Assembly (NCBI GenBank): GCA_963721805.1
Contig: CAVRJY010000004.1
Coordinates: forward strand, 160,001-224,000
Reading direction: 5' to 3'
Length of the DNA: 64,000 nucleotides
Origin: Nitrospirota bacterium
Lineage (GTDB): Bacteria; Nitrospirota; Thermodesulfovibrionia; Thermodesulfovibrionales; JdFR-86
The notes beneath the pieces are model-generated. The model searched no databases, was not told the DNA's origin, and worked only from the letters and a program-made list of their open reading frames with translations. The translations under genes and the position numbers were made by a program. Positions 7,293-35,748 of the stretch are shown here, piece after piece; position 1 is the first letter of the stretch; each line of letters opens with the position of its first letter.

Positions 7293-7490
7293 TGAAAGCG
7301 CTCCAAATCGCTTGATGCTGCGTTGGACTTCAAAGACTCGCCCTCTATGAACGCCCAAGTACACCATCGGGGTGCCACGGGCACCTCTTTCCAAGGAGAG
7401 GGGCCAACCGGCCCCCCTTGCCTGAAGACGATTTGGGCGCGCTTTCGGGGGGCACGGAAGAAGGTCGCCCCCAGCGCCCCGGTGGTCAAA
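7293..7490 (+). repeat. Family A long-hairpin repeat, copy 1
   Basis: aaagcgctccaaatcg...gtacaccatcggg...cgatttgggcgcgcttt...ggtcaaa. Confidence 0.85.
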
Positions 7491-7799
7491 AGCTTTGATA
7501 AGAATTGCCGCCATGCGTTCGCATCGGGGCTGGCACAGGCGATTACATTGCTTGCAGTGCTCAGTTTGGTAATATGCATTGGTGGACCTGTATTATTTGT
7601 CTGCGGTCATTAAGCAATTATTGATTGGTCTAATACTCTTACCGCCCTCCCCATGGATATATTCCTCAGGGCGTTTTTTTGCGCTCTAGCGGATTCTATT
7701 CTGTCTATCTATTGCGCTGACGATTACTTGAGAAATCCTAGCGCGCCATGCTTCCCTTCTTTGCGGGAACAAGTTACAATAGAGCATATGGAGGTGTGT

Positions 7800-8102
7800 A
7801 TGGCCGATTCGCTGACTGAAATACGCACAGAGCTCAAGAGACACAAACGGGAAATCATCAGGAAGTACAAGGTGCGGGAGATCGGCATCTTCGGCTCCTT
7901 TGTCCGCGGTGAGCAAAAAACGAGAAGCGATGTCGACGTGCTGGTTGAATTCGATGAGGAGGATATACCGAGCCTCCTTGAGTTCATTGCCTTTGAGCGG
8001 CACCTGGCTGACATCCTCCACAAGAAAGTGGATTTAGTCCGCAAAGAGGCAATCCGCCCTGAGTTACGGGAGGACATCATGCGGGAAGTTGTCTACATTT
8101 GA
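7800..8102 (+). CDS. mntA: Minimal nucleotidyltransferase (MNT) antitoxin
   Basis: Motifs IFGSFVRGE...SDVDVLVEF and KVDLV; GGAGG RBS; overlaps the HEPN gene. Confidence 0.88.
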   Translation: MADSLTEIRTELKRHKREIIRKYKVREIGIFGSFVRGEQKTRSDVDVLVEFDEEDIPSLLEFIAFERHLADILHKKVDLVRKEAIRPELREDIMREVVYI

Positions 8103-8437
8103 AGCGGGATTACAAGCTCTTTGTACAGGACATCCTCGATGCCATAAAGCGCATAGAGGAGTTTGTGGGCGAGATGAGCTTTGAGGAATTCATTGCCGAT
8201 GCTAAAACAGCGAGCGCCACAGTCTTACAGGTTCAGATTATCGGAGAAGCTACAAAGAATATTCCCGCAAAACTCAGGAACCGGTATGCCGGCATCCCCT
8301 GGAAAGATATGGCCGCCATGCGGGATAAGGTAACACATTTCTATTTCGGGGTTGACTATAAAATCGTCTGGCGGGTAATTAAAAAGGACTTGCCTGTTAT
8401 CAGGCCTCAGATAGAAAGAATTCTCGCTGAACTATAG
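8099..8437 (+). CDS. hepT: HEPN (DUF86) RNase toxin
   Basis: IIGEATKNI and an RX4HXY motif (MRDKVTHFYFGVD); TTG start overlaps the MNT stop. Confidence 0.88.
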   Translation: MKRDYKLFVQDILDAIKRIEEFVGEMSFEEFIADAKTASATVLQVQIIGEATKNIPAKLRNRYAGIPWKDMAAMRDKVTHFYFGVDYKIVWRVIKKDLPVIRPQIERILAEL

Positions 8438-8477
8438 TATCTGCTACTTAAACTGTTACTCCTGCGCGCCCCTACAT

Positions 8478-8830
8478 TAACTAAAGTTAGCCGTAAGTTA
8501 GTAGAAAACGCACAGGCATCAATTTTTCCTATCAACTTTGGTTTATATATAAACCAAAGTTTGGCGTCCTTTGGTGTATAGTGGTGCGATGAGCATGATA
8601 GGATCATATTTGATGGGCGGGGCAACAAAGGAAGCGGGCCTCAACGCGCGTTCGGAGGCAGGGTCTAAAACCGGGCGACATATCCGAACATCCGAACAGC
8701 GCCGGACTCGGAAAAGCAATGTTTTTCAGATGGTTATCCGCGTATTTGCCTCAAACATCCGAACACTTAAAATAAAACGCACGCGCGCGGAATGCGTAAC
8801 TATACCTAAGCGGGAACATCAGAACATGCC
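8478..8830 (+). repeat. Inner module attached to family A: 28-bp palindrome, -10 box, ATCCGAACA repeats, GC run
   Basis: Homologous to 29537-29945 in reverse orientation. Perfect palindrome aactttggtttatatataaaccaaagtt at 8534-8561. Confidence 0.8.
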
Positions 8831-9020
8831 TTTGACCACGTGGGGCGCGGGGGGCGTCCTTCTTCCGTGCCCCCCGAAAGCGCGCCCAAATCGTCTTCAG
8901 ACAAGGGGGCAGTGGCCTCTCCGGGAGAAGACCCGGCACCCCGATGGTGTACTTGGGCGTACATAGAGGGCGAGTCTTTGAAGCCCAACGCAGTATCAAG
9001 CGATTTGGTGCGCTTTGAAA
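8831..9020 (-). repeat. Family A long-hairpin repeat, copy 2 (inverted)
   Basis: tttgacc...aaagcgcgcccaaatcg...gatggtgtac...cgatttggtgcgctttgaaa. Confidence 0.85.
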
Positions 9021-9024
9021 GAAG

Positions 9025-10707
9025 CTACTTAATCAGCTTCATGCCTTGTACTGCGCGCAAATGGAGGGTTTGGAGTTTCAAGGCCCGCTCAAAGCTCACC
9101 TTCGCGCGAAGCGGCATGCCGAGCGCCACGTAAACGTGTCCGATCTCGGCCTGATAGTCGGGGTTTGCGGGGTCCAGCGCTATGGCCCTCTGCAACGCGC
9201 GCTCGGCCTCTTTGTGCCTGCCCAGCCGCGTGAGCGACAGGCCGTACGCATAATGGTATTTCACTACGGCATCGTTGAGCGCCACGGCCTCCTTAAAACA
9301 GTCCGCGGCCTCGGCCTGCCTGCCCTTTTTCCAGTTGGCCTCGCCTTCAACGAACTTCGCGTCGGCCTTGTACACGTCGCCGGAGCCGGCGGCGCTCGTG
9401 CTGCCGTCATATTCGCGCCTGGCCTCCTGGTCCATCAGGGTGGAGTAGGACTTGGTCAGGAAGTTAAAGACGCTTTCGAGTTTTTTCCTCGCATCAGGCG
9501 GAAGATAGAAGTGGCGGTCGGGGTGGAAGGCCTTGCCTTTAAGGTAGTACGCGCGTTCTATCTCGGCGGGCGTGGCATCGCGCTGCACGCCGAGCGCGCC
9601 GTAATAGCCCAGCGAGCCCAGGTTCGCGCACATGAACTCCAGCTCGGGCATGAAAGCGGAGGGGTCGACCTGGTATGGCTGGCCCACCACGATATCCTCT
9701 ATCGTCGGCGTATAGTGGCGATCGAACTGCTCGCCGGCCCCGATATGGTCGATCGTGCGGGTGCTGAGCAGGGCGTATACAGTCTGGTACGTGCGGAGTT
9801 CCCCAAGGGGAGAGGCCGCCATGACCTCCTGCATCGTGCGTCTGCCGTCTATCAGGGTGAGCAGCGCGCGTTCGTCGTCCCCAAGGACGACCGCCTGAAA
9901 GAGGTTCAGCGGCTCGGTCGAGATTATAAGGACCGAATCCGGGGGAGGGCAGAGCGAGGAAAGCCGCCCGGTGTCTGTAATCCGCCTGATGCCGACGCGG
10001 GTGATGTTGCCGATCTGGAGGCTCAGGCCCTCGGCCCTGCCCATCGGGACGTTGCCGTCGCGGTAGTTGAAGTCCGCCTCCTCGAGCCCGAAGAGCCCGG
10101 TGATTATCGACTCGATATTGGCCAGGACGACCGCGTCAGCCTCGGTGGAGTCCATCACCCTCATCTCGACGAGCACCGCCTGCGGCCGCTTCCTCATGTT
10201 GATGACCGCGTCGTTGGCCCTCATGTACCTGGGCCTGTCGATGCGGCCCCACTCCAGCAGCATGTCGAGGAGCCTGTCCTGCTGGGCGTTGGATGTCGCG
10301 TGCACGATGTCGGAGTTCTCGAAGAACACGGACTTCTGGATCGGGCCGGATGTCACGTTCAGCACCCCGGTCAGCCCCCGGCGCTGAAGGCCGAGCATGA
10401 CGTCCGCGAAATTATAGTACTTGAGGCTGCCCTGAAGCACGCCCTGCTTCCTGATGCCGGCAAGCAGCAGCCCGTCGGGCCCCCTGCGTATCCAGACGAC
10501 CTTGCCCGCGCCGCTGAGCTTCTTGTGCTCCGGCAGCTCAACCATGAGCGTATCGCCGAGCTTCAGAGGCGGCACGCCCCTGATCCCGAGCTTAATGCCG
10601 TCGAAGGCGTAGTCTAACAGCGTGGCGTGGAATGGCTTGCCCTGGATCGGGAGCTGGAAGTCGTACCTGAGTTCATGCCTCGTGAATGATCGCTTGTCCT
10701 TGAGCAT
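9025..10707 (-). CDS. PilZ + DUF4388-like + DnaJ + TPR multidomain protein
   Basis: N-terminal RxxxR...D...G and GKVVW (PilZ-like); GSL...LTGVL; YYGALGV...FHPD (J domain); C-terminal TPRs. Start codon inferred. Confidence 0.75.
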   Translation of the reverse strand: MLKDKRSFTRHELRYDFQLPIQGKPFHATLLDYAFDGIKLGIRGVPPLKLGDTLMVELPEHKKLSGAGKVVWIRRGPDGLLLAGIRKQGVLQGSLKYYNFADVMLGLQRRGLTGVLNVTSGPIQKSVFFENSDIVHATSNAQQDRLLDMLLEWGRIDRPRYMRANDAVINMRKRPQAVLVEMRVMDSTEADAVVLANIESIITGLFGLEEADFNYRDGNVPMGRAEGLSLQIGNITRVGIRRITDTGRLSSLCPPPDSVLIISTEPLNLFQAVVLGDDERALLTLIDGRRTMQEVMAASPLGELRTYQTVYALLSTRTIDHIGAGEQFDRHYTPTIEDIVVGQPYQVDPSAFMPELEFMCANLGSLGYYGALGVQRDATPAEIERAYYLKGKAFHPDRHFYLPPDARKKLESVFNFLTKSYSTLMDQEARREYDGSTSAAGSGDVYKADAKFVEGEANWKKGRQAEAADCFKEAVALNDAVVKYHYAYGLSLTRLGRHKEAERALQRAIALDPANPDYQAEIGHVYVALGMPLRAKVSFERALKLQTLHLRAVQGMKLIK

Positions 10708-10789
10708 GCCTATGTCATTATCGCATAAGGGCGCGCGGCTTTGCCAAGCCAAGTATGAAATCACAGCTTGAGCGGTGTTAGTATAAGCA

Positions 10790-11098
10790 ATGCAACGCTT
10801 CATACCCGAGGCCTCGGACGAGGAAATAAGGCGCGAGAAGGCCCGCGCCCGCGAGCTCCGGTCCACCCCCTGGTGGAAGCGCAAGTGCGCCTCGGGCCGG
10901 TGTCACTACTGCGGCGGAACGTTCAAGCCCTCGGAGCTGACGATGGACCACCTCGTGCCGGTCGTGCGCGGCGGCAAGTCCGTCAAGGCCAACCTGGTGC
11001 CATCGTGCAAGGACTGCAACAACAAAAAGAAATACCTGCTGCCGTCGGAGTGGGAAGAGTACCTCGAAAGGCTCAAGGACGAGGAGATACCGGACTAG
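10790..11098 (+). CDS. HNH endonuclease family protein
   Basis: CHYCG...TMDHLVPVVRGG...NLVPSCKDCNNKK. Confidence 0.9.
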   Translation: MQRFIPEASDEEIRREKARARELRSTPWWKRKCASGRCHYCGGTFKPSELTMDHLVPVVRGGKSVKANLVPSCKDCNNKKKYLLPSEWEEYLERLKDEEIPD

Positions 11099-11820
11099 GC
11101 CGTCCGCACTACGGATCCGCCCGGCACAAGGGCAATCAGCTTCGCCATCGCCTCGTCAACCACGGCCGCGTCGGTGCCCTCTATAGTGACGATCACCTTA
11201 TAGTCCGGCAGCCCGAGCTTGGGGTACGAGCCCACAGAGAGCATCGGATACCGGGCCGCGACCTCGGTGATGCTCGGGGCGAGCAAGCACTCCTCCTCGC
11301 TCAGATACACCTGCCTGAGCACGAACGGGCGCGAGCGGAACCGCTCGCGGAGCGCATGGAACTTGCGCCTGAGGTACTCCGGTATGCCGGGGAATATGTA
11401 GACGTTGCGCATCACCACGGGCGGAAACCGCGAGCCCTCGGCCTCGACTATCTCCGAGCCCTCCGGGACCTCGGCCATCTTGCGCACCGCCTCGTCGGCT
11501 GGTCCGTCGCACAGCCCGCAGAGCCGCTCGAGCAGCCCCGCGTCCGCCACCGTGGCCACGCCGAATGCCCTCGCCACTCCCTCCATCGTCACGTCGTCGT
11601 GCGTAGGGCCGACGCCGCCCGAGGTGAAGACGAAGTCGTACGCGCCGGAGCAGTCCGCGACCTCTGCCGCGATTACGTCGATCTCGTCCGGGATCACAGC
11701 GATGCGGCGCAGGTCGACGCCCAGCTCGCGCAGCTCCGAGGCGAGAAACGGCGAGTTGCAGTCCGCGACCTTCCCGGAGAGGACCTCGTTACCTATTATT
11801 ATGACCGCGGCTGTCTTCAT
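11095..11820 (-). CDS. CinA N-terminal / molybdopterin-binding domain protein
   Basis: Motifs IIGNEVLSGKVAD, TSGGVGPTHDD and IFPGIP. Confidence 0.88.
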   Translation of the reverse strand: MKTAAVIIIGNEVLSGKVADCNSPFLASELRELGVDLRRIAVIPDEIDVIAAEVADCSGAYDFVFTSGGVGPTHDDVTMEGVARAFGVATVADAGLLERLCGLCDGPADEAVRKMAEVPEGSEIVEAEGSRFPPVVMRNVYIFPGIPEYLRRKFHALRERFRSRPFVLRQVYLSEEECLLAPSITEVAARYPMLSVGSYPKLGLPDYKVIVTIEGTDAAVVDEAMAKLIALVPGGSVVRTA

Positions 11821-11856
11821 GGCGATGGGAAAAGTATACCACAGGTATGCGGCGTG

Positions 11857-12642: not shown

Positions 12643-12685
12643 GTTGTAGTTTAACAATTCGGCCCCCGCCAGTACAAACAGGGGG

Positions 12686-12955
12686 TGAAAGCGCTCCAAA
12701 TCGCTTGATACTGCGTTGGGCTGCGAAGACTCGCCCTCTATGTACGTCACATCAGTCCGCTTGGTCAAGCGTCCGGGGCTTTCTACAAAGCGCTCCAAAT
12801 CGCTTGATACGTCGTTGGGTTGCGAAGACTCGCCCTCTATGTACGCCCAAGTACACCATCGGGCGGTCTTCTCGCCCCGCCTTGTCTGAAGCCGATTTGG
12901 GCGCGCTTTCGGGGGGCACGGACGAAGGACGCCCCCCGCGCCCCACAAGGTCAAA
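12686..12955 (+). repeat. Family A repeat, copy 3, with an extra 99-bp tandem partial unit
   Basis: aaagcgctccaaatcg occurs at 12688 and 12787; ends in ggtcaaa. Confidence 0.88.
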
Positions 12956-13149
12956 GGTATTGATATATATACATACTTATCGCGTGCGCGTGCGCGCGCG
13001 CATATTTTAGAGCGTTCAAGTGAACGTGCCGGTCGCGCCTCTAACCCCTTGGAAAACATCGTTTATTCGGCCTCCCCCATGTTCATGCGTTCAGAAACGT
13101 TTTCCGCGCATGATAAGCCCTCCTGTAGTCGTATTTTATACGGAGAACT

Positions 13150-13463
13150 CTCTCTGCGCATGGCCTAGTTTTCAGGGGTAAGATCGACAGGAATCACTCT
13201 GTTCGACAAATCCGATAGAATCCTGTTTCTACTCGGTCGGCACTATCACGGGCAGGGTAAAGAGATGGCGCAATGGGGATATGGTGCAGCGATGGGCGGT
13301 TTCCGCATTGTTTTGGGCCGAGAGCAAGTTCAAGCGCATAAAGGGCTACACTCAAATACCATCGTTACTGGTTGCCCTTGCAAAGAAGAATATTGACAGA
13401 AAGTAGCTGGCGGCGTAAGCTAATGCAGTTGAGTCCTTAGAGCTTCAACGGAAGCAAGGGCAT
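13150..13463 (+). mobile_element. IS256-family transposase 3' remnant with its terminal end
   Basis: Translation SLCSTNPIESCFYSVGTITGRVKRWRNGDMVQRW...AESKFKRIKGY resembles the IS256/mutator C-terminus. In-frame stop; no 5' part. Confidence 0.75.
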
Positions 13464-13497
13464 GGGCTGCAGATATTATTCCAGAAAGGAGGTATTC

Positions 13498-13719
13498 ATG
13501 ACAAAGCTAATTCGTATTTTCACCATGAAAAAAGCTATATTCATTCTCGCGATAGCCAGCTTAACGGTCGGTTACTTACTGATCACGCACACGCATGCGT
13601 CGGCCGGTGGCCATGACCAACTTTGTCTAGACAACTATAATCAATGCATAAAAGGTTGTGATGGAGCGACATCATGCAGCAATCAATGCAAAACTAACTA
13701 CGACGCTTGTATGCGTTAA
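13498..13719 (+). CDS. Small secreted protein with six Cys
   Basis: AAGGAGGT RBS; hydrophobic signal; C-x6-C-x3-C-x5-C-x3-C-x6-C. Confidence 0.7.
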   Translation: MTKLIRIFTMKKAIFILAIASLTVGYLLITHTHASAGGHDQLCLDNYNQCIKGCDGATSCSNQCKTNYDACMR

Positions 13720-13749
13720 TGAATCAAATACTCAGTTTCCCCAAATCTA

Positions 13750-13792
13750 GGGGGTGGAGTCTCAAGCGAGACTTTGCCCCCTACCTTCTTTT
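13750..13792 (+). terminator. Probable intrinsic terminator
   Basis: ggggtggagtctc-aagc-gagactttgcccc followed by a pyrimidine tract. Confidence 0.45.
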
Positions 13793-13862
13793 GACAAGCC
13801 ATGTAGGTAAGTCTGGAATCTTGGATACGACGCAAAAAAAAGATAATGCCGTATAAATTAAA

Positions 13863-13950
13863 CTTGCAAATAAAACATTGACAGGAAGAAACTTGCGGTG
13901 TAATCTAATGGCGATTGAGTCCGAGGGATCTAAACGGAATCTGGGGCAAA
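13863..13950 (+). mobile_element. Second IS256 3' end fragment with sigma70 promoter
   Basis: cttgcaaataaaacaTTGACAggaagaaacttgcggtgTAATCT...gagtcc...aacggaa, homologous to 13377-13463. Confidence 0.7.
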
Positions 13951-13984
13951 GTCCATAAAGTCCATCTTGAAGGAAGAGGTTCAT

Positions 13985-14590
13985 GTGAAAAGATATTTGT
14001 TTGTTGCGATACTTATCCTGCTATCAGGGTGTGCATCAACCCCGATAAGCCTGACAGGAGATGATCACATAATTGTTCCAGGAGAACGTGTCGGCCCCAT
14101 TCGTCTTGGCATGTCCGAGCAAGATTTGCTTAAGCTTGGAACGTCAGAAGGACCTTTTCCGTCACCGTTATACATAACGTCCCTATATGGTGGTGGATCG
14201 TCCTCTGGGATTCCAGGCATTCTATATAAATTTGGCGGAAAAATGATCTGGGTTTATTTGGAGCGAAGTAGCCATCGAGTCGTTCAGATAGACCTTGGTT
14301 ATCATGGTGATTGCGGTGTTTATCATACAGCAGAGCGTGTCAGTTGTGGGTCTTCAGACTATTACAGCATAGTTGGTGCGTTAGGCGATCCGGATAAGCG
14401 GCGTAACTGGGATTTTGGGCACCATCAATTGATGCGGATTACGTACTTTAACAGTATTCATTCACCCAGTTCATTGACAGTTTTTAATTTTGACCCTGGA
14501 AGTGATATGAGCGTAGCTCCCGTCGATAATCTGCAAGATATAAGTATGTTTGAAGGCGAGTATGGTAATTATTTTCGCGCTGGTAATTAG
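13985..14590 (+). CDS. Lipoprotein of unknown function
   Basis: GTG start after an RBS; lipobox LSGC; DHIIVPGERVGPIRLGMS. Confidence 0.75.
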   Translation: MKRYLFVAILILLSGCASTPISLTGDDHIIVPGERVGPIRLGMSEQDLLKLGTSEGPFPSPLYITSLYGGGSSSGIPGILYKFGGKMIWVYLERSSHRVVQIDLGYHGDCGVYHTAERVSCGSSDYYSIVGALGDPDKRRNWDFGHHQLMRITYFNSIHSPSSLTVFNFDPGSDMSVAPVDNLQDISMFEGEYGNYFRAGN

Positions 14591-14775
14591 TAAATACTGC
14601 AAAGTTCCGCAACCCTCATGGCCAGATTTTGCACAAGCCCTACAAGGCTGCTGAGTGAAGAAAAACAATTCATCTCTAAAGTGGTATCAAGCATTACCTT
14701 AGGGATCCGGAAGTGGTGGTCAAAACAAGGCTCTTGATAAGCTCGTAATGATAAGATAATGCTTTGCAAATAAAA

Positions 14776-14862
14776 CTTGCAAATAAACATTGACAGGAAG
14801 AAACTTGCGGTGTAGTCTAATGGCGATTGAGTCCGAGGGACTTCAACGGAATACAGGAGAAA
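14776..14862 (+). mobile_element. Third IS256 3' end fragment with sigma70 promoter
   Basis: TTGACAggaagaaacttgcggtgTAGTCT...gagtccgagggacttcaacggaa, nearly identical to the second copy. Confidence 0.7.
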
Positions 14863-14972
14863 CCTTCAATTAACCAGCCAGAAATAGTACTTCCTGTTGA
14901 GTCAGGTATCGTACCTGTAGTCGTACCAGTTTCTGATTTTATTCAGGACTTAATAACTATGGAGGCTGCCCA

Positions 14973-15140
14973 ATGGCTAAAACTTATTTTGCACTCCTAT
15001 GTGTCTCGATAATAATGATATTGGCTGGATGTGCAAGCGTGACTAGCGTATCAGATGCTGATCTGCAAATGCGGCAACAAGCTGTGGCAAGAACGGATAG
15101 GCTTATCGTCCCCGGCGGGCAGGCGATGAGGATTTTGTAG
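14973..15140 (+). pseudogene. Truncated lipoprotein related to 13985-14590
   Basis: GGAGG RBS; MAKTYFALLCVSIIMILAGC...DRLIVPG, then an abrupt change and a stop. Confidence 0.55.
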
Positions 15141-15411
15141 ATGATGCGGAAGAGTTATTTGATCTCCTCCAGCCTAGGGTCGCAATCTATGAGGAAACTC
15201 TCGCAAAGCACGGTTTAGAACTGCCATATCCGGGGCCAGTGATCGAGAAGAGTTAGAGCCATATTATCGATGGTTCGGGGACGAAGGACTAAGGGTAATC
15301 CGATACCGCATATTCTGGTTAGGGCCATTACAAGGACAAGATTATTGCCTCTATTTTTTGGAGTGCTGTTGTTGGCGAACTGAGTGACACATTCAACTTA
15401 AGGAGCTAAGG

Positions 15412-15936
15412 ATGTTTAGTAGTGGCGAGAGTAGAATACCGGACGTAACTACGCATAAGGGGTTAGCGCAAGCTCTCCGATGGGCTGAGGAAGCTGCAAA
15501 AACTCCAAACACAGAGGTGCAGTTCTCGGGGGTGAGGGCATGCGTATTAACAAATGTACAGATAGATTTTAATCTTTTCTATCGGCTCCTTAAAATCAAA
15601 CCAGGGCTGCCCCACAGCAAGGGTAGCCATTACATAAGACGAACGGTAGAATTCTCAGAAATTCTGGCTGAAAGAGGTATTGAGGACACAGCTGAAAACC
15701 GTCAGAAACTTGAAAATGATATTCATAACCTTATGTGTAGTATATCGATGAAGTCTGACAAAGGAGCGGCTATGTTCACGTTAATAGACAGGTATATTCG
15801 ACAGACGCATATAGTCCAGTTTGCAGCCTTTACATGCATTGATGATGTTGCTGCAAAGCTCCAAGAAACTGGAATGGATGCCCGGGATTACTTCAAGGTG
15901 CTTTTGAGCGCTTCCAAAAACCAGCCACTCTTTTGA
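15412..15936 (+). CDS. Hypothetical protein
   Basis: 174-aa ORF in AT-rich DNA with an AAGGAG RBS; no motif recognised. Confidence 0.6.
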   Translation: MFSSGESRIPDVTTHKGLAQALRWAEEAAKTPNTEVQFSGVRACVLTNVQIDFNLFYRLLKIKPGLPHSKGSHYIRRTVEFSEILAERGIEDTAENRQKLENDIHNLMCSISMKSDKGAAMFTLIDRYIRQTHIVQFAAFTCIDDVAAKLQETGMDARDYFKVLLSASKNQPLF

Positions 15937-15998
15937 ACGCTAATACGGTTTAATCTTTTCACGCTGGATCATGCGCGACTCGGTGAAACCTCCTTTGT

Positions 15999-16565
15999 TT
16001 ATCTAAACAAAGCTCCCGACAGAAGTACAATGTCCACGACAATTAGCCCTGCCACCGCTAATCCTACCAGCGGATCAAGCATTGCCGCCAGCCATCCTAT
16101 GTATTGCAGCCCGAAGCCCGCGAGTATGCCTAACACATAACCAGCTGAAAGCCCCGCAACACCTGTCAGCAGGCCATGAAAGAGGGTATAGTGTTCAAGC
16201 GTACTGATGAAAATCCCGGCAGACAGCCCTGCGAATACGAAGAAAAAAAAGAAGCCTACAAGAAAACCGGCATAAGACGGAGATTCTCCCCATCTGGACG
16301 AGATGCTCATGACGAGCAGTGCCAGAATTCCCGCCATGCCAATGCCGCTGGCTATCCAGCCTACAATTGATCCTTGTGAGAGTCCTGCTGGGACACCTAT
16401 GGCTATAAGGATGGTACAAACTGCTAAGGCGATGTAGAATTCAGTAAACGAGCTGAAACCTGACTTCGACTCTTGATTAGGACGAATCCGGCTCCACAGG
16501 AATGCGGGAAAGAAGCGGGCATGGAATTCAACGGATAAGAACCTCGGAGGATTACTATCTACCAT
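15999..16565 (-). CDS. Hypothetical multi-pass membrane protein
   Basis: AAGGAG RBS before MVDSNPP; about five hydrophobic segments. Confidence 0.7.
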   Translation of the reverse strand: MVDSNPPRFLSVEFHARFFPAFLWSRIRPNQESKSGFSSFTEFYIALAVCTILIAIGVPAGLSQGSIVGWIASGIGMAGILALLVMSISSRWGESPSYAGFLVGFFFFFVFAGLSAGIFISTLEHYTLFHGLLTGVAGLSAGYVLGILAGFGLQYIGWLAAMLDPLVGLAVAGLIVVDIVLLSGALFR

Positions 16566-16820
16566 ATTGTCTCCTTTTACCGTTACCATGTGAACTTGAT
16601 AGAGTATGCCGCTACTCATAGTCCTAAAGCAACAATATACGGATATCGCGCCGTAGCCTCCCATCTTCTCTCAGATGGTATCTTGGCACTCTCGCCTGTG
16701 ACAGGGGCTAATTGCTAATTCTCACCCCTCCCACTTGGGGATGAGCCGCACTTATCAATGCCGTTTACCGCTCGCACGATTCCACATCAGCAACTTAAAG
16801 CGCGAGATCAATTTAATGCC

Positions 16821-16994
16821 GTTGACATTGGGGTGCGGGGTCCAGCGGCTGTGCCGCGTCTAACCCCGCAAAGCGCGCCCAAATTGTCTTCAGACAAGGC
16901 AGGGCGAGAAGACCGCCCGATGGTGTACTGTGACGTACATAGAGGGCGAGTCTTTGATGCCCAACGAAGTATCAAGCGATTTGGCGCGCTTTCA
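16821..16994 (-). repeat. Family A repeat, copy 4 (inverted)
   Basis: gttgac...aaagcgcgcccaaattg...gatggtgtactgtgacgtacat...cgatttggcgcgcttt. Confidence 0.85.
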
Positions 16995-16998
16995 TCTC

Positions 16999-17283
16999 TT
17001 AACTTTTGTATACCTCATCATGGCTGCCCACATCGAGAAGTATGATCTCACCGTCCCCGATCAAAACGGTAAGCGCAATCCTGTAGCTGCCGGTGATGCT
17101 GACCGCCTGTATCCCCTTCAGCTTTCCCCCCAATGGGTGAAGCGCCAGGCTGGGTGCGAATGGGTCTCGCTCCAGTTGGCGGAGCGTGGCGGCGAACCTG
17201 GCGTTCAGGTCGGGGTGCTTCTTCATGAACTTCCGGGCCGCGCGGACAAAGGACGCCGTCCATACGAGTTTAAACACCCTCAA
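16999..17283 (-). CDS. RelE/YafQ-like type II toxin
   Basis: FKLVWTASFVRAARK, LHPLGGKL, SITGSYRI and DVGSHDEVY. Confidence 0.88.
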   Translation of the reverse strand: MRVFKLVWTASFVRAARKFMKKHPDLNARFAATLRQLERDPFAPSLALHPLGGKLKGIQAVSITGSYRIALTVLIGDGEIILLDVGSHDEVYKS

Positions 17284-17536
17284 GCCCCAGCTCCTTGATT
17301 AAATCCTTTGCCGTCCCGCGCTTTACCCTCCCGGCCTTGACGTCCTTGAGCGATGCCGCAAGCCGCGCGGCATAGGCCTCGCCCTCGGCCTCGGTGAGTT
17401 CACGGTAACGCTCCTCGGTCAGGACGACGTACTGAAGCTGGTTGTTCTTTATGATGTGTACAGCGCCGTCCTTGATGATATCGTCAACGGCGGAGATGCC
17501 CCTCCTCTTTATGTCCTGCGCCGCCAGGGTATTCAT
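17270..17536 (-). CDS. Phd/YefM-like antitoxin
   Basis: AQDIKRRG...AVHIIKNN...YVVLTEERY; overlaps the toxin gene. Confidence 0.85.
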   Translation of the reverse strand: MNTLAAQDIKRRGISAVDDIIKDGAVHIIKNNQLQYVVLTEERYRELTEAEGEAYAARLAASLKDVKAGRVKRGTAKDLIKELGLEGV

Positions 17537-17630
17537 ATCGGTACTCCTTTCGATACTTTTAATAGTACCTTAAATATATCATTAGCGCAGCTAAATATCA
17601 AGCCTTGATAGAGCCCTGTATAATTGAAAT

Positions 17631-19885: not shown

Positions 19886-19888
19886 CCC

Positions 19889-26766: not shown

Positions 26767-26771
26767 ATGTC

Positions 26772-27167: not shown

Positions 27168-27225
27168 TGATTAATATTTTACAGCAATCGCATTGCAAAA
27201 GGGAACTTCTGAAAGCGCGCCATAA

Positions 27226-27909: not shown

Positions 27910-27936
27910 ACGCAGGGATTATAACACCGGGGGCGG

Positions 27937-29190: not shown

Positions 29191-29265
29191 GGTAAGATAA
29201 TCGCCCATTCGCCCCAAAAAGTCAAGGGGGCGAGGGATACTTTTACCTATATCGGCGTCTCTTCC

Positions 29266-29536
29266 AAAGCGCTCCAAATCGCTTGATACTGCGTTGGGCT
29301 TCAAAGACTCGCCCTCTATGTACGTCACATCAGTCCGCTTGGTCAAGCGTCCGGGGCCTTTTTCAAAGCGCTCCAAATCGTTTGATACTGCGTTGGGCTT
29401 CAAAGACTCGCCCTCTATGTACGCCCAAGTACACCATCGGGCGGTCTTCTCGCCCTGCCTTGTCTGAAGACGATTTGGGCGCGCTTTCGGGGGGCACGGA
29501 CAAAGGCCGCCCCCCGCGCCCCACAAGGTCAACGGC
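29266..29536 (+). repeat. Family A repeat, copy 5, with an extra 99-bp tandem partial unit
   Basis: aaagcgctccaaatcg occurs at 29266 and 29365; highly similar to copy 3. Confidence 0.88.
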
Positions 29537-29945
29537 ATGATTTGAGGCATGTTCTGATGCTCGCGCTTAGGTATAGTTACGCATTCCGCGCGCGTGCGCG
29601 CGCGTTTTTGCGTCTTTTGTTCGGATGTTGGGCAAGAATATGGCGATAATATCTTGAAAACACTCATTTGTTTGTCAGCCCTCTGTTCGGATGTTCGGAT
29701 AAAAGACGCGTTTTCTGGCCCATCATCCGAACACGCGGCGCTTGTCGAACACGCAGAACACTTCGGCTCCGCGCTGAGTGCTTGATGGCCTCTTGTCTTC
29801 CCTTTCAAATACATACCTAACTTACTCATCGCACCACTATACACCAAAGAAGGCCAAACTTTGGTTTATATATAAACCGAAGATAATAGGAAAAATTTAG
29901 GTTCGTGCGTTTTCTATTAACTTACGATTAACTATGGTTAATAAG
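29537..29945 (-). repeat. Inner module homologous to 8478-8830
   Basis: Shared gcttaggtatagttacgcattccgcgcg, gttcggatgtt repeats and the ctttggtttatatataaacc palindrome. Confidence 0.8.
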
Positions 29946-30226
29946 CGCTCACCTACATCAGACACACGACACCGTCAAATTCAATGCACTGAACTTTGGA
30001 CACGCACGGACGCGGTTTGTTAATTTGGCTTCTAGCCTGGGTTTTCTCGCAACGAGTTGATTACATATAGAAAATAACCATTCTGTTATATTCAATCATT
30101 ACTGTATTTTCTGCCTTTTCATACCGCTTCTGCTACAATTTTGCTCCAGTCAGAAAGCCTCTAATATATAATTGCAAAGATTAATATTTTGGTGCTTCTG
30201 ATATAATTATTGCGGTAATAACTATC

Positions 30227-33200
30227 ATGACCACTCAGCCTGATTTACTCGCTAAGATAGTAACACCGCAACTGAAAAAACAGTTACGAGAGATTTGCGC
30301 GTTCGCTGAGAAGTTCTGGGAAAAGCCTTTTCTTTACTGGTTTACTAATCATGACGTAGAACATTCTAAGGAAATTATCCGGCGCATAGAACAAATAATC
30401 GTCCCGCTTGAGGGTACTGATAAGGCACTTAATGAGCACGAGACTTTCATACTCCTAGCCTCGGCTTATCTGCATGATATTGGCATGCAATATCTAAAAT
30501 ATGAGGGCAAATCTCCGGAAAACTTCACAGCTCAAGATTATAATGCAATACGGAAACTGCACGCTCAGTCAAGCTATGAACTTATCCGCAAGGGTATTAC
30601 AGCAAAGCTAGATAGAGACGATGTACACTTCCCGGATTTAAGCAAGCAATATATCCCCATTATTGCCCTAGTCTCGAAAGGCCACTCTGGCGACTTCTTT
30701 GAGGAGGTAGTAAATCACTTTGAAAAAACCCCCTATTCTCCAGACAACTGCGAAGTCAGAGGGGGACTTCTCACTGCGCTTCTACTCATAGCCGACGAGC
30801 TTGACCTTCATGCACGGCGCGCAAACTTCGATAATCTGAAGAACTATACCCCTTCCAGCTATACGTTTTCACACTGGTACAGACACCATTACGTGGAGCA
30901 CGTCGCTGTCGTTGAATCGTCTGTAAAGTTATTATTTGAGTTTCCGGACAATGCTGGTGATTACGCATCGCTGGTTATTTCTGCTATAGAGACGAAGATA
31001 GAGCAACAGATTTCATTCGTAGAGGATACGATCCGAAAAGCTACCGGAAGGATTCTGCTTAATCGCAAAGTTGAGATCAATCAGCGAGTAAATCCTGAAA
31101 CACATCGTCGTTCTATGCCAGAGGGTGTGCAGGCTGAGTTTCGCAAATTGCTTGACGATAAAGCAGTGCAAGCTAAATCTGCCTCCGGCTCTCCACCCAC
31201 TATAGCATCGTCTTCCTATACAATAGTTCCTCCCGAAAAACCTGTTAGTATATTTACCGGACGCAAGGAAGACTTGGAGCGGTTCAAATCTGCGCTTGCT
31301 GCCTCACCCATTATCTCCATAGAAGGTATCGGCGGCATTGGTAAAACCCAGTTCGCAGCTAAATGTATTGCAGATTTGTTCAATACGGAAAAGGTGGTTT
31401 GGTTTAAATGCACTACGGATACGCAGCTTGACTCACTAATCGAGGCATCAGGTTTTCCAGATGTCCTAAAGGGTGAGAATAAGACAGAGCTTGCAAGGTA
31501 TGCTGGGTTTCTGTCACTAATTGAGAAGCACGAAAAAATCATTTTTGTTGATGACTTTCAAGAAGTCACTGACAAATCGTTTGCCGAGTTTATCAGATTT
31601 GCACATGCGCGACTTGAAAAGGCCAAGATTGTTCTTATAGATCGAGAGCACCCGAATATCTCGGGTGTACACATTGCTCCTGTTCAGCTTGAGGGGCTTG
31701 GAAGCGCGGCATTAGAGTACGCGAAGAATTTCTGTAGCACATACTATCAAGGCATAACGATCGATAATGATACATTGCAAGGGCTTTGTGACAAGGCTGA
31801 CGGACACCCGCTCTCAATAGGGTTTGCAATTCAGCTGCTCAGTTACGGTGCGTTATCTGATGACATTATTGTGGCCATGATGGGAACTAAGCAGGGAGAC
31901 GAGTTGAGTAAGCGTCTACTTGCTATGGTATTCGATCATCCTCTAAGTACTGAGGCGGAGCGCGCATTCATGCTAACAATGTCGGTCTTGCGTGGATCGT
32001 TCGTCCCTGACGCAGAGGTACATATGCTTGGCTGTAACTACACGGCAGTCCGATACAGGCTGATTGAAAAGCATATGCTTACCCTTGATGATAAACAGAT
32101 AAGGATGCATCCTGTAGTTCGGGAGTTTTGCTATGCTCGTCTTAAGGACAAGATGGACTCACACAAATGCGCAGCCTCATATTTGGCCTTATCTAGAACA
32201 AATGTTTTTGATTCAAAAAGAGAGGAGGAGATCTTTCATCATCTTGCTCTCTCCTTGCAAACAGATGGAATGACCGAACTCTTAGTTGAATATGGAGAGG
32301 AATTTATCATTCGAGGCCAAACTAATACTCTCCTCAGAATGATCGAACAAGTCGAAAAGCAAAATATAGAACGCCATGAATTTGAACTCTTCAAGGGAGA
32401 CATCGCTCAAGTCCGTGGAGAATGGGATAAAGCGCTTAAGCATTTTGAAAAAGCTTCCTCCTCTTCTGAACTTTCGGTTTGTGTAGACTCTTATATCAAA
32501 TATGGAGAAATGTTATATAGGCGATGCCAAATTAATGATGCTCTAACTTATTTCGAGGGAGCATATAAGAGCTGTAAAGGACAATATCCGAAAGGCGAAG
32601 CACGGAGTCTTAATGATATTGGATTGGTCAATCGCACTTTCGGTGACCTCAAAGTCGCAATGCAATTCTTTTCAGATGCCCTTAAGATTCAACGATCCAT
32701 AGATCATAAAGAGGGTATTGCGAACACTGTTAGTAATACAGGGCACATCTTATATATGCAGGGCAAACTCAATGAGGCAATGAATATATACAATGAGGCC
32801 CTAGACATTTACGAAGAGATCGAGAACAAGAACGGTTTCGCAAACAGCCTTCTTGATATAGGGGGTATGTTATTTAAGCAGGGCAAACTCAATGAGGCAA
32901 TGAATAAATACAATGAGGCCCTAAAAATATGCGAGGAAATCGGGGACAGGCCCAGCATCGCAACCAGCCTCAATAATATAGGGCGTGTGTTGTGTGCTCA
33001 AGATAAACACAAGGAAGCTAAGGGAAAATTCAATACTGCACTAAAGATTAGCGAGGAAATCGGGAACCGTCGCGGTATATCATCAAGCCTTAATAACATA
33101 GCGGGCGTGTTACGTGATCAGAAAAAATTTAATGAGGCGTTGGACAAATACAATGAGGCCCTAATAATTTGCAATGAAATCGGGGACAGACGCGGTATAT

Positions 33201-33679
33201 CAATTTGTTTAAATAATATAGGGGTTGTGTTAAGTAATCAAGGCAAACTCAATAAGGCAATGGAGAAATACAACGAGGCCCTAAAGATTGACAAGGAAAT
33301 CGGGGATCAGGTATCGATGTCAACATGTTATCATAATATTGGTACTGCTTATTATGACGAAAAGAAATACGTACTGGCATTTAAGTATTTACTTGAGTCA
33401 TCTGCAATGGAAAAAGAGATGGGAATAATTCGGCCTGCGTCAGAGCAGTATATTTATGAACTAAAAAATGGGTTGGGCGGATTATTTATTAAGAAACATA
33501 GGGAACATATGTTAGAGGCTTTTGAGGCCATATCAGAAAGAATAAAACCTTATCTTGACATAAGCAAATTCTTCGTATGCGATACAATTAAACGAGAAGC
33601 ACCTAAAGTCGGTCGGAATGATCTTTGCCCATGTGGAAGCGGCAAGAAATTTAAGAGATGTTGTAGTCTTACTGCATAA
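30227..33679 (+). CDS. HD-domain + STAND (NB-ARC-like) NTPase + TPR array + SEC-C motif; NLR-like putative defence protein
   Basis: FTNHDVEH...YLHDIGM...ADELD; Walker A GIGGIGKT; Walker B IIFVDD; GHPL; MHPVVREF; 40-aa TPR repeats; GRNDLCPCGSGKKFKRCC. AT-rich. Confidence 0.85.
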   Translation: MTTQPDLLAKIVTPQLKKQLREICAFAEKFWEKPFLYWFTNHDVEHSKEIIRRIEQIIVPLEGTDKALNEHETFILLASAYLHDIGMQYLKYEGKSPENFTAQDYNAIRKLHAQSSYELIRKGITAKLDRDDVHFPDLSKQYIPIIALVSKGHSGDFFEEVVNHFEKTPYSPDNCEVRGGLLTALLLIADELDLHARRANFDNLKNYTPSSYTFSHWYRHHYVEHVAVVESSVKLLFEFPDNAGDYASLVISAIETKIEQQISFVEDTIRKATGRILLNRKVEINQRVNPETHRRSMPEGVQAEFRKLLDDKAVQAKSASGSPPTIASSSYTIVPPEKPVSIFTGRKEDLERFKSALAASPIISIEGIGGIGKTQFAAKCIADLFNTEKVVWFKCTTDTQLDSLIEASGFPDVLKGENKTELARYAGFLSLIEKHEKIIFVDDFQEVTDKSFAEFIRFAHARLEKAKIVLIDREHPNISGVHIAPVQLEGLGSAALEYAKNFCSTYYQGITIDNDTLQGLCDKADGHPLSIGFAIQLLSYGALSDDIIVAMMGTKQGDELSKRLLAMVFDHPLSTEAERAFMLTMSVLRGSFVPDAEVHMLGCNYTAVRYRLIEKHMLTLDDKQIRMHPVVREFCYARLKDKMDSHKCAASYLALSRTNVFDSKREEEIFHHLALSLQTDGMTELLVEYGEEFIIRGQTNTLLRMIEQVEKQNIERHEFELFKGDIAQVRGEWDKALKHFEKASSSSELSVCVDSYIKYGEMLYRRCQINDALTYFEGAYKSCKGQYPKGEARSLNDIGLVNRTFGDLKVAMQFFSDALKIQRSIDHKEGIANTVSNTGHILYMQGKLNEAMNIYNEALDIYEEIENKNGFANSLLDIGGMLFKQGKLNEAMNKYNEALKICEEIGDRPSIATSLNNIGRVLCAQDKHKEAKGKFNTALKISEEIGNRRGISSSLNNIAGVLRDQKKFNEALDKYNEALIICNEIGDRRGISICLNNIGVVLSNQGKLNKAMEKYNEALKIDKEIGDQVSMSTCYHNIGTAYYDEKKYVLAFKYLLESSAMEKEMGIIRPASEQYIYELKNGLGGLFIKKHREHMLEAFEAISERIKPYLDISKFFVCDTIKREAPKVGRNDLCPCGSGKKFKRCCSLTA

Positions 33680-33751
33680 GGGTTTAAATCGGGCGTGCAA
33701 TATTGGATTAATATCCATAATTAAATAGGGGCAAGCCCGTTTTATTTGCTC

Positions 33752-34260
33752 TCAAGTCTTTATAAAGGTAGGCGCATTTTTCTGAGTCTTCCCGCCCTTG
33801 ATCTGATGGTAATACTCATAGGTCATCGGGGCCACAGTCGCTCAATACCGCCGACTCGACGACCTTCCCGACGAACAGGCAGTGGGTGCCGAGATCGACT
33901 TCCTGCACGACCTCCGCCTCGAAATACGCTATGGCATAGTCGGTGACGATGTTCGCGCCCGTGACGCCTCGCTTAAAATTGACGCCCTCGAATTTCTGGA
34001 AGTCCCTGCCGGTGCGGAACCCGAACCTGCCTATGAACTGAAGCGGCGTCTCCACCGAAAGCACCATGACCGCGAAGACCCTGCTTTGAGCGCACGCATT
34101 CGCAGGTGAGGTTATCCTTGTTCAGGCTGACCGCTATCTGCGGCGGCTCGGCCGTGACCTGAAACACGGTGTTCGCGATCTGTCCGTCCGCCTGCTCCCC
34201 GTTAAAGGACGTGACTACATACATGCCATAGCTTATCTTCGCGAGCGCGTTAGGGTCCAT
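33752..34260 (-). pseudogene. Flavin reductase-like protein with two +1 frameshifts (near 34086 and 33829)
   Basis: ISYGMYVVTS, NTVFQVT, FGFRTGR, GTHCLFVG and PMTYEYYH lie across three frames. May be assembly errors. Confidence 0.8.
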
Positions 34261-34448
34261 CCCCAAAGATATGCCCGCCGCGGCCGAATGTCAAGTGCAG
34301 CCCTGGGCCATGGAGGAGAGCCTGCCTTGCATGCGCCGCTGATCGCGGCCCCTGGACGGAACTCTTGACATGGCGGCGGAAGGGGCCTAAGATGAGGATA
34401 AAACAAGCCCTTCGGCTTTTTTACTGAATCCGGGCAAGGAGGCCTTCA

Positions 34449-34637
34449 ATGAAATATCCGGTAGTGGACTATGAAACATGCATAGGGTGCGGCTCGTGTG
34501 TCGCGCTCTGCCCCGAGGTGTTTGAACTTCGCAACGACGAGAAGGCGTGGGTGATAGCTACGGATAAATGCGACACCTGCGATTGCCAGGAGGCGATTGA
34601 TGTCTGCCCTGTCCAGGCGATCAGCTGGAGCGAGTGA
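34449..34637 (+). CDS. Ferredoxin
   Basis: CIGCGSC...CP...CPVQAI. Confidence 0.92.
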
Positions 34638-34646
34638 GAGACCTAC

Positions 34647-35096
34647 ATGAAAATTACAATCCCGGCGTCGTTGAAATCGGAACATAGGGAGCTTCACGCG
34701 GAGCTTGCCAGGGCCGTCCGGACGCCCGGCCCTATTGGCAGGGCCGCCGAGGCGGTCGCGGAACTCCTGCACCCCCATTTCGTGAAAGAGGAACAGTACG
34801 CATTGCCGCCGATCGGCCTGTTGAAGGCCTTGGCTGAAGGCAAGGCCAATGAGGATATGCGGGAGGTCCTCGTGATGACCGACAGGCTCAAGAAAGACCT
34901 GCCCGATATGATTAAGGAACACAAGGCGGTCGTCGCGGCTCTCAAGGATCTGGTTGCCGCGGCAAAGATGGAAAAGAGGGATGATATCGTCCATTTTACC
35001 GAGAAGCTCATGCTCCATGCAAAGACGGAAGAGGACGTGCTGTACCCTGCCGCGATATTGGCGGGAGAATACGTGAAAGTCAGGCTGGGCAAATAG
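34647..35096 (+). CDS. Hemerythrin/HHE domain protein
   Basis: Motifs EH, HFVKEE, EH and HAKTEEDVLYP. Confidence 0.85.
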   Translation: MKITIPASLKSEHRELHAELARAVRTPGPIGRAAEAVAELLHPHFVKEEQYALPPIGLLKALAEGKANEDMREVLVMTDRLKKDLPDMIKEHKAVVAALKDLVAAAKMEKRDDIVHFTEKLMLHAKTEEDVLYPAAILAGEYVKVRLGK

Positions 35097-35194
35097 TTCC
35101 CGCACTCAGCCAGCCCCGAGCTGGAGCGCCATGGACCAAGAGTTCTCTTGCGTTAAAAGTATCTTTAGGCTAAACTGGAATCAGGAGGGCAGCC

Positions 35195-35491
35195 ATGGAT
35201 ACCAGCGGAATCGGCCTGTCGGGCGTCAACGCCTTCGAGACGAAGCTCAACGTCACCGCAAACAACATAGCCAACCAAAACACCGCCCAGTTCAAGCCCT
35301 CCGAGGCGAACACGCAGGACAATGCCGGCCAGGGCGTGTATGTCACGATCAGCCAGAGCAGCACCCCCGGTGTGGATCTTGCAAAAGAGATGGTCGACAT
35401 GATGACCTCGAAGATCGGCATAGAGGCCAACCTCAAGAGCATCGAGGCGGCCGACGAAACAACTCAGCACACCCTCGACATCATCGCCTAG
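35195..35491 (+). CDS. Short flagellar basal-body rod domain protein (orphan FlgC-like)
   Basis: ANNIAN motif and VDLAKEMVDMM. Confidence 0.8.
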   Translation: MDTSGIGLSGVNAFETKLNVTANNIANQNTAQFKPSEANTQDNAGQGVYVTISQSSTPGVDLAKEMVDMMTSKIGIEANLKSIEAADETTQHTLDIIA

Positions 35492-35566
35492 GTGCCACGG
35501 GCACCTCTCACTATTCGCGGGGGCGACTGCCCCTCTCTCTATTCGCGCGATAGCGCTCATCTCTTA
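35490..35566. repeat. Family B repeat
   Basis: ggtgccacgggcacctctcactattcgcggggg...ctattcgcgcgatagcgctcatc. Confidence 0.65.
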
Positions 35567-35571
35567 TCTAA

Positions 35572-35748
35572 GCCGTTGACCTTGGGGGGCCCGGGGGGCG
35601 TCTGTTGGCTGTGACACCCCCGAAAGCGCGAGAAATCGTGTCAGACTAGGAAGGGCGAGAAAACCGCCCGATGGTGTACTGAGACGTACATAGAGGGCGA
35701 GTTTTCGAGAACTGACGACGTATCACGCGAGTTTCGCGCGCTTTGAAA
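35572..35748 (-). repeat. Family A repeat, copy 6 (inverted, most divergent)
   Basis: gttgacc...aaagcgcgagaaatcg...gatggtgtactgagacgtacat...gcgcgctttgaaa. Confidence 0.8.

Follow-up and report, generated by a model that had tools for sequence, protein, structure and literature searches.

The genome of the Nitrospirota bacterium in assembly GCA_963721805.1 carries a dispersed long-hairpin repeat, here called family A, whose copies are set in inward-facing pairs and turn one particular end, a one-sided tail, toward islets of low guanine-plus-cytosine (GC) content. We analysed a stretch of 64,000 nucleotides (the window; positions 160,001 to 224,000 of the forward strand of contig CAVRJY010000004.1), in which an earlier note had described six copies forming three inward-facing pairs, with tails ending in GGTCAA pointing inward. 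All six copies were confirmed in place and orientation: they form three pairs, alternate in orientation, and have every tail inward. The hairpin forms a new family, of the same kind as repetitive extragenic palindromic (REP) sequences, enterobacterial repetitive intergenic consensus (ERIC) sequences and MITEs (miniature inverted-repeat transposable elements). We tentatively favour the idea that family A is a REP- or ERIC-like repeat with a lineage-specific tail that acts as a junction for attaching or exchanging foreign DNA.

Pairing and polarity of family A copies

The source genome (G000) comprises 2,775,341 bp in 9 contigs (C1, C2 and so on; the window lies on contig 4) and is 94% complete, with a GC content of 0.60 overall and 0.58-0.62 in the contigs. 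A profile of family A was built from 58 full copies and run on the whole genome, giving 231 matches, with 172 full copies (89 on the plus strand and 83 on the minus strand), 48 copies with only the head, 7 with only the tail, and 4 internal fragments. Together, these approximately 230 copies account for roughly 1.5% of the genome. When consecutive full copies were classed by orientation, plus/minus neighbours (n = 57), whose tails face each other, lay less than 3 kb apart in 39 cases, with a median gap of 1,871 bp, compared with only 4 cases and a median gap of 10,696 bp for minus/plus neighbours (n = 55). Plus/plus (n = 30) and minus/minus (n = 24) neighbours were closer than 3 kb in 8 cases each. 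Inward pairing is thus far beyond chance genome-wide, as the earlier note had proposed from the window, and we did not find the pattern it had named as contrary to its proposal, that of randomly oriented copies mostly flanking core genes.

We defined a bracket as an inward-facing plus/minus pair of copies with a gap of 300-9,000 bp, and a low-GC islet as a stretch of at least 700 bp with GC below 0.48, which gave 54 brackets and 98 islets genome-wide. Interior GC was below 0.55 in 46 of the 54 brackets. Copies with the tail toward the islet were present at both borders of 30 islets, at one border of 34, and at neither border of 34, and where a border was occupied by a repeat, the tail faced the islet in 94 of 95 cases and the head in 1. 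The proposal that these repeats bracket accessory cargo therefore holds well beyond the window. Element edges are sharp on the outer side, at the heads, and fuzzy on the inner side, and the genome also contains 8 tail-to-tail doublets free of cargo.

In 51 brackets, 181 interior open reading frames (ORFs) were collected, and 71 of these matched Pfam families. Cargo of toxin-antitoxin (TA) type included MazE/PemK, ParE/Phd, HicA, MNT/HepT and Gp49/HTH, and the remaining cargo included DUF4160/DUF2442, Abi_C, a methylase-Mrr fusion, KAP NTPase, HNH, PLD, a Ser/Thr kinase, and three insertion sequence (IS) families.

The tail and its adjoining modules

The tail is a one-sided 3' extension of the hairpin that ends in GGTCAAYGGCWT, with TCAA conserved; some tails are of a short form, and others include a GC hairpin. 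The excess of truncated copies that keep the head over those that keep the tail (48 against 7) indicates that the tail side is the unstable side of the repeat. Core-less tail units or bare 12-mers were also observed in tandem approximately 10 nt past the tail, at 16808-16757 in the window and at C1:1056547, C1:1057250-1057310, C4:310826 and C1:387148 in the genome, and could have been left behind by events that recurred at the tail. A loose scan for the 12-mer was set aside; outside the repeats, its matches were mostly chance occurrences of coding GTC-AAG-GGC.

Many tails are followed by terminator-like hairpins with T-runs. One such hairpin, a CG hairpin, is located at the start of module B, an inner module of approximately 400 bp that also contains five TGTTCGGAT-like iterons and two palindromes. 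Module B gave 60 matches, and 48 of these adjoin a co-oriented tail. The extra inner module that was originally described at one end of each pair, making the ends asymmetric, proved to be a genome-wide feature: exactly one module B was present in 32 of the 54 brackets and two in none, with 21 brackets lacking the module and 1 having a single match away from either tail. Arms carrying module B faced gene starts in 26 of 45 cases, and arms lacking it faced stops in 85 of 127. An outward promoter in module B was considered and rejected, as a consensus scan gave no consistent site. A further module, C, is made of tandem GCGAATAGTGAGAGG and GC hairpin units, and was found after 29 tails, mostly those of solo copies (for example, window 35569-35490, C1:382896 and C4:110308). 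Module C was rejected as a regular partner of module B, the two occurring together in only 2 of 48 classed brackets.

Position behind stop codons

Genes were mapped using our own codon-usage caller, which yielded 2,435 genes and 83% coding sequence. The nearest gene on the head side was co-oriented with the repeat in 115 of the 172 full copies, the head lying at a median of 13 nt past the stop codon, and at 30 nt or less in 92 copies; for the other 57, the nearest head-side gene was on the opposite strand. The distance from stop to head is variable (0-26 nt), a TGA stop sometimes overlaps the first A of the head, and a stretch of approximately 12 nt upstream of the head is semi-conserved and pyrimidine-rich. 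When 60 pairs were examined, at least one head was at a stop in 51, only one in 39, and both in 12, and in these 12 the heads were at the stops of convergent genes. In 82 copies from other genomes, a co-oriented stop lay within 70 nt of the 5' end in 38 and a convergent stop near the 3' end in 24, although spurious ORFs in GC-rich DNA inflate both counts.

The copy at mrdA/rodA (L049:4960-5240, on C5) is flanked by an exact 16-bp duplication of the former overlap of the two genes, both of which are whole. This case is unique among the 172 copies, and long target duplication as a habit of the family was rejected.

A conserved hairpin found in several phyla

The core of the repeat is a long imperfect rod hairpin of approximately 123 nt, with folding energies of -37 to -57 kcal/mol in eight copies. 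Its foot is AAAGCGC/GCGCTTT, the TTGATAC/GTCTGAA stem contains the conserved mismatched bases T.C and G.G, and three unpaired motifs are kept throughout (CATAC...GYG-TY, CCTCNACGTA...TACGCCTNCGG, and CCTTGTCTG). The fold was evaluated in 84 copies from the source genome, in which 90.2% of cells were paired (slid controls, 35-48%) and compensatory change affected 24 of 40 pairs. In 74 copies from other genomes, 86% of cells were paired, compared with 33-44% in slid controls, and compensatory change was seen in 33 of 40 pairs.

A covariance model of the hairpin (R1) was searched in 151 genomes of the class and detected the family in 10 of them, with 17 copies in G002, 22 in G003 and 7 in G035. 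A degenerate pattern was also scanned across 185,579 species genomes, and among the matches listed (80 loci), R1 matched in 70; these loci belong to Nitrospirae, Desulfarculaceae, other Thermodesulfobacteriota, Rokubacteria/Methylomirabilota, Terriglobia, and unclassified proteobacterial assemblies. Hairpins of other genera have an additional outer inverted repeat of 20-30 nt and are without a tail. Rfam gave no match at gathering score in the window, and at E<=1, three loci from three genomes gave only two matches, both at chance level. BLAST with the repeat gave no match in 40 relatives, and metagenome contigs contained neither a perfect copy of one 28-nt segment of this sequence nor a relative of the PilZ-DnaJ-TPR protein encoded next to one copy in the window; LptD, encoded next to another, has only 30-36% identity to that of the nearest compared genomes. 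No recurrent flanking protein was present among 2140 ORFs around copies in relatives and other phyla, and large clusters of neighbouring genes that appeared across phyla were rejected as spurious ORFs spanning the repeat itself.

Family A shares with the REP, bacterial interspersed mosaic element (BIME) and REPIN (REP doublet forming a hairpin) repeats of Proteobacteria, which are associated with REP-associated tyrosine transposases (RAYTs), a high number of extragenic hairpin copies, frequent inverted doublets, a 3' untranslated position near stops, and a role as hotspot for specific IS elements. It differs in that its hairpin is 123 nt long, compared with 20-40 nt for REP sequences, that its genome is without a RAYT, that the repeat has a one-sided tail, and that most of its doublets enclose foreign genes, over 1-6 kb. 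ERIC sequences, also called intergenic repeat units (IRU; ∼127 bp), and MITE-like repeats of the Correia/NEMIS type are long imperfect palindromes of about 120-130 nt that occupy intergenic sites at gene ends and whose mobilising enzyme is unknown. Palindrome size, position at gene ends, a copy number that varies widely among relatives, and the lack of a known enzyme are all shared with family A, and the outer inverted arms on the relatives' hairpin copies resemble MITE ends. In contrast, there is no sequence match to ERIC or Correia repeats, the family spans several phyla, and no short target duplication could be defined; to our knowledge, a polar association with islets has not been described for the ERIC or Correia families. 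Among the papers listed by a literature search, none was relevant to MITE-like hairpin repeats in Nitrospirae.

The location of these copies raises the possibility of a role in RNA, in which the repeat would be transcribed as a 3' untranslated end and its hairpin would protect, process or end the transcript, as REP and ERIC sequences do, with copies at islet borders selected as insulators of core genes. Liang, Rudd and Deutscher (in 2015) reportedly observed that REP sequences near stop codons regulate translation. The 115 copies starting shortly behind a co-oriented stop, the similar placement of 38 of the 82 copies elsewhere, and the T-run hairpins after many tails, including the one at the start of module B, would all be accounted for, and the combination of conserved unpaired motifs with stems that covary is characteristic of structured RNAs. 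Wobble pairs are also biased across phyla, with G-U exceeding A-C on the head-to-tail strand (156 vs 98). However, the two are balanced within the source genome (G-U 87, A-C 100), no upstream gene reads into the 57 copies whose head-side gene is on the opposite strand, and the family is patchy, being present in so few genomes of the class. Insulation would also leave unexplained the tails repeated in tandem without a core, the predominance of truncations that retain the head, and the rule of one module B. We consider an RNA role rather unlikely as the explanation of the brackets.

A proposed junction at the tail

The reading that we favour, as a tentative one, places the decisive event at the tail. 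Family A would be a much expanded local branch of a widespread, uncatalogued group of intergenic repeats of REP, ERIC or MITE kind, with rod hairpins of about 120 nt, that lodge directly behind stop codons. In the source lineage, the hairpin would have gained its one-sided 3' tail, and this tail would have become the junction where low-GC foreign DNA is attached or exchanged, so that an inward pair arises when two tail junctions face each other. In a typical bracket, a resident copy would sit behind a stop, and a second arm, often with module B, would bound the far side of the cargo. Events would follow in this order, with recombination taking place in or next to the tail and a trans-acting enzyme reading the folded strand. 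This reading fits best because of the polarity rule, the unstable tail side, and the limit of one module B per bracket, and the many islets with a repeat at one border only (34 of 98) are consistent with it.

Several observations weigh against a junction at the tail. Eight of the 54 brackets have core-like GC, and the annotated ones among them hold core-type genes (znuA/fur, ruvBC), although these are probably chance neighbours. One-third of the islets (34 of 98) have no repeat at either border, and approximately 78 full copies have no islet at their tail. Apart from IS elements and the inner modules, no cargo was common to two brackets, and we saw neither an enzyme nor an empty site, and neither a junction read nor cargo that had moved. 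Outside the genus, in other genera and phyla, the hairpin is mostly solo, in surroundings of normal GC and without the tail, and 4 of 6 close hairpin pairs in other genomes were direct. Tail and brackets are accordingly features of the source lineage, and a docking role would be lineage-specific. In addition, gene positions rest on our own crude caller, and the assembly, at 94% completeness, is divided among 9 contigs.

A more far-reaching form of this reading, possible but doubtful in our judgement, would be a chromosome-wide cassette system, in which folded hairpin sites behind the stops of core genes use the tail as exchange point for accessory and defence genes, and are worked by a host-borne or unrecognised recombinase. 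Such a system would be a functional parallel to integron attC sites and plasmid dif modules, but its sites, unlike those, would be dispersed, inverted and polar, with a single module B in each slot, and based on a hairpin family common to several phyla.

Candidate enzymes and traces of insertion

The earlier note had suggested that the repeats are either cassette ends mobilised in trans or insertion hotspots, and had pointed to HUH enzymes, which act on hairpins next to tetranucleotides such as TCAA. To place this suggestion, we consider the model that each pair and its cargo is a non-autonomous cassette, which is mobilised whole and in trans, either by an HUH enzyme (IS200/IS605 TnpA, RAYT or IS91) acting at the hairpin and a TCAA-type site or by another transposase using the two heads as ends. 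Matches to PF01797 (Y1) were confined to six identical 602-bp copies of an IS200 element, encoding a Y1 transposase of 143 aa; four of the copies are inside brackets and two are beside A or B copies. The end hairpins of this element have no likeness to the core or tail of the repeat, and no RAYT, Y1 enzyme with repeat-like ends, TnpB or IS110 enzyme was found in the genome, while the IS91 search was uninformative, its control having no match anywhere. Across the class, Y1_Tnp was detected in 114 of 151 genomes, but it was not found in the hairpin-bearing G002, G003 and G035, which are 96-100% complete. Target duplications were sought as the longest common flank words, which equalled controls for 172 single copies and 60 pairs, with the restriction that duplications below ∼8 bp would escape.

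The lack of a target duplication is what HUH enzymes predict, and the location of the IS200 copies, the TCAA kept in the tail, the sharp outer edges with fuzzy inner ones, and the single head at a stop in 39 of 60 pairs, as expected from one insertion event, are likewise compatible with transposition as a unit. Other results argue against it. IS200/IS605 ends are direct, but the two arms of a bracket stand in inverse orientation; the core identity of the two arms of one bracket (median 0.79) barely exceeds that of arms from different brackets (0.77; P=0.047); no cargo other than IS elements is present twice; and neither the IS481-like nor the IS30-like element described below has ends that resemble the heads. 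We regard movement as a unit as unlikely, and the enzyme that works the repeat is probably not a Y1 HUH transposase. The trans-mobilisation half of the earlier suggestion was therefore not upheld with respect to HUH enzymes, and its hotspot half fits the data. A likeness between the CTTGATA of the stem and the nick site of pC194/phiX174 was also dropped, relatives having CATAC at that place.

Mobile insertion cassettes consist of IS-derived inverted ends around passenger genes and have no transposase, and the brackets share with them two inverted ends that enclose passenger genes without a transposase. Unlike these cassettes and MITEs, the brackets have no parent IS with the same ends, no target duplication, and heterogeneous arms. 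Retroelements of a SINE-like (short interspersed element) or retron type differ in two ways, as reverse transcriptase (PF00078) had no match in the genome and truncated family A copies keep the 5' end.

Two other IS elements were noted. Five of 7 aligned copies of an IS30-like element, with a transposase of 326 aa, are inserted in the apical stem of the hairpin, all at a single position, making the repeat a preferred target of this element; an apparent 36-nt duplication around it was rejected as an artefact of overlapping local alignments. An IS481-like element of 1200 bp, with a 344-aa rve transposase and ends beginning TGTAAAGG, has 10 copies (for example C2:405829-407028 and C1:963112-964311), each of which adjoins an array of GGAACNNGTTCC palindromes or lies inside one; these palindromes are a further repeat family. 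Among sequencing runs, the DNA run X1 contained 13% of the sampled words, and its Logan contigs (150-300 bp, depth 2-3) were identical to core and cargo and spanned no bracket junction; runs X2 and X3 supplied nothing beyond fragments of conserved genes from other organisms.

Integron attC sites, among them the 123-126-bp repeats of Vibrio cholerae, are imperfect hairpins in which structure is conserved more than sequence. The family A hairpin is of the same size, is likewise better conserved in structure than in sequence, has conserved unpaired bases, lies directly after a co-oriented stop, and is present in a comparable number of copies (∼100 or more). It differs in that there is no IntI and there are no AAC/GTT core sites, that copies are dispersed and inverted instead of forming one array, and that the gene before the repeat is a core gene and not a cassette gene.

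On Acinetobacter plasmids, dif modules are accessory modules, often of TA type, that lie between inverse copies of a short site, are shuffled although they lack their own transposase, and are an IS target site (PMC13141974, PMC6449649, PMC10132070). The brackets similarly consist of inversely oriented sites around accessory or TA cargo. In contrast, the sites of family A are 185-nt structured repeats on a chromosome, behind stops, and dif sites are 28-bp XerC/XerD sites on plasmids; exchange at the brackets was also not observed. The brackets resemble both dif modules and attC sites in several traits, and fail the defining features of both.

These likenesses suggest an alternative that overlaps our favoured reading in spirit, namely that a tyrosine recombinase, one of the seven encoded by the genome or the host Xer pair, reads the folded hairpin or tail and exchanges modules. 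The hairpin of ∼123 nt with its mismatched bases behind a co-oriented stop, as in attC, and the TA-rich cargo between inverse sites, as in dif modules (PMC13141974, PMC6449649), are compatible with this, and targeting of the hairpin by the IS30-like element (5 of 7 copies) parallels the targeting of pdif by IS elements (PMC10132070). However, the integron integrase profile (TIGR02249) gave no match above its 265-bit cut-off in this genome, the best reaching 68.8 bits, the stem ends in AAAGCGC/GCGCTTT and not RYYYAAC/GTTRRRY, and inspection of the tail, by eye only, revealed no Xer-type palindrome of 11-6-11. Sites that are dispersed and inverted are also not arrayed in one direction, and recombination between inverted sites would invert DNA, not excise it. 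We consider a site of attC or dif type improbable.

It is very unlikely that the brackets are a by-product without mechanistic meaning, formed by copies inserting independently behind stops while foreign DNA survives in the same gene-free gaps, for although the dissimilar arms, the lack of target duplication and moved cargo, the eight core-GC brackets with core-type genes in the annotated ones, and the 12 pairs at convergent stops would agree with it, the ∼5% of genes with a copy behind the stop would by our own arithmetic give 1-2 convergent double occupancies against 50-60 pairs, and neither the inward tails at 94 of 95 occupied borders nor the absence of module B from both arms at once would follow.

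The three brackets of the window

Each of the six copies has a sharp AAAGCGC head, a core of ∼123 nt, and a tail closing with a GGTCAA-type 12-mer, and the repeat finder groups them as direct family D14/D15 and inverted pairs I1-I23. Interior GC is 0.48, 0.46 and 0.47 in pairs 1, 2 and 3, respectively, and all three pairs have one arm with a B or B-like module. The A3 head faces the 5' end of a minus-strand phospholipase-C-like gene, and the A5 head that of a minus-strand SLT/LysM gene, while AAAGCG of A4 begins 7 nt past the TAA stop of a YafQ-like gene. The small ORFs of pair 2 had no match to Pfam or PADLOC.

Table 1. Coordinates of the repeats, modules and neighbouring genes in the window, and of two IS elements in the source genome.
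Feature	Positions	Strand	Remarks
Repeat A1, left arm of pair 1	7293-7495	+	Head AAAGCGC at 7295; apical insert in core; tail 12-mer 7484-7495
Pair 1 cargo	7653-8437	+	MNT nucleotidyltransferase 7653-8102; HepT RNase 8099-8437
Module B on A2 tail	8476-8830	-	TGTTCGGAT iterons; AT-rich palindrome
Repeat A2, right arm of pair 1	8826-9018	-	Head 8 nt past TAG stop of PilZ-DnaJ-TPR gene
PilZ-DnaJ-TPR gene	9025-10884	-	Head side of A2, outside pair 1
Repeat A3, left arm of pair 2	12686-12960	+	5' half-copy 12686-12751, then full copy 12786-12960
Pair 2 interior	12961-16807		B-like variant at left end from 12961, then islet of small ORFs
Repeat A4, right arm of pair 2	16757-16994	-	Full copy 16816-16994; long tail, then another tail unit without core (16808-16757)
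Repeat A5, left arm of pair 3	29265-29538	+	Half-copy 29265-29329, then full copy 29363-29538
Module B on A5	29546-29950	+	CG hairpin and T-run (29587-29604); five TGTTCGGAT-like iterons; two palindromes
Pair 3 cargo	30227-35553		HD-CE/STAND/TPR/SEC-C gene (30227-33679, +); flavin-reductase fragment; hemerythrin gene; one unknown ORF
Repeat A6, right arm of pair 3	35560-35746	-	Full copy 35570-35746; head 32 nt past TGA stop of lptD (35776-38262, -)
Module C after A6 tail	35569 down to ∼35490	-	Tail side of A6
IS200 copies	C1:42213-42814, C1:366468-367069, C1:1251879-1252484, C1:1452027-1452629, C4:138455-139055, C4:146417-147020		G000
IS30-like copies in hairpin	C1:387240-388391, C1:649272-650423, C1:759585-760736, C2:367096-368246, C2:397044-398195		G000; loci L008, L020, L038

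The placement of conserved housekeeping genes outside the brackets, as originally described, held in large part. By Pfam, the genes there are mostly core: HisG, acetyl-CoA synthetase, the PilZ-DnaJ-TPR protein, the phospholipase-C-like protein, cytochromes, the SLT/LysM transglycosylase, and LptD. The description failed directly outside the right arm of pair 2, where a weak YafQ-like toxin with a small upstream ORF is located (17002-17536, minus strand), so that accessory genes are not strictly confined to brackets.

Three further features were noted. The PilZ-DnaJ-TPR gene of Table 1 has a paralogue (L036:5478-7175), both encoding PilZ-DUF4388-DnaJ-TPR proteins, and each of the two adjoins a repeat bracket. 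A small Lipoprotein_15-repeat gene is present as tandem paralogues at 1064-1477 and 1649-2065 of the window, with 75% DNA identity. At 54000-64000, on the minus strand, at least 38 glycine-codon-rich repeat units follow each other with a 195-nt period, which suggests the gene of a giant repetitive surface protein extending beyond the window.

Implications

Whatever the role of the tail, the core of the hairpin is a structured, conserved element that occurs in several phyla, with clear covariation and without an Rfam entry. If foreign DNA does dock at the tail, approximately two-thirds of the small foreign islets of this genome (64 of 98) would be kept in slots set by one structured repeat, and family A would represent a third way to organise acquired genes, distinct from integron arrays and plasmid dif modules.

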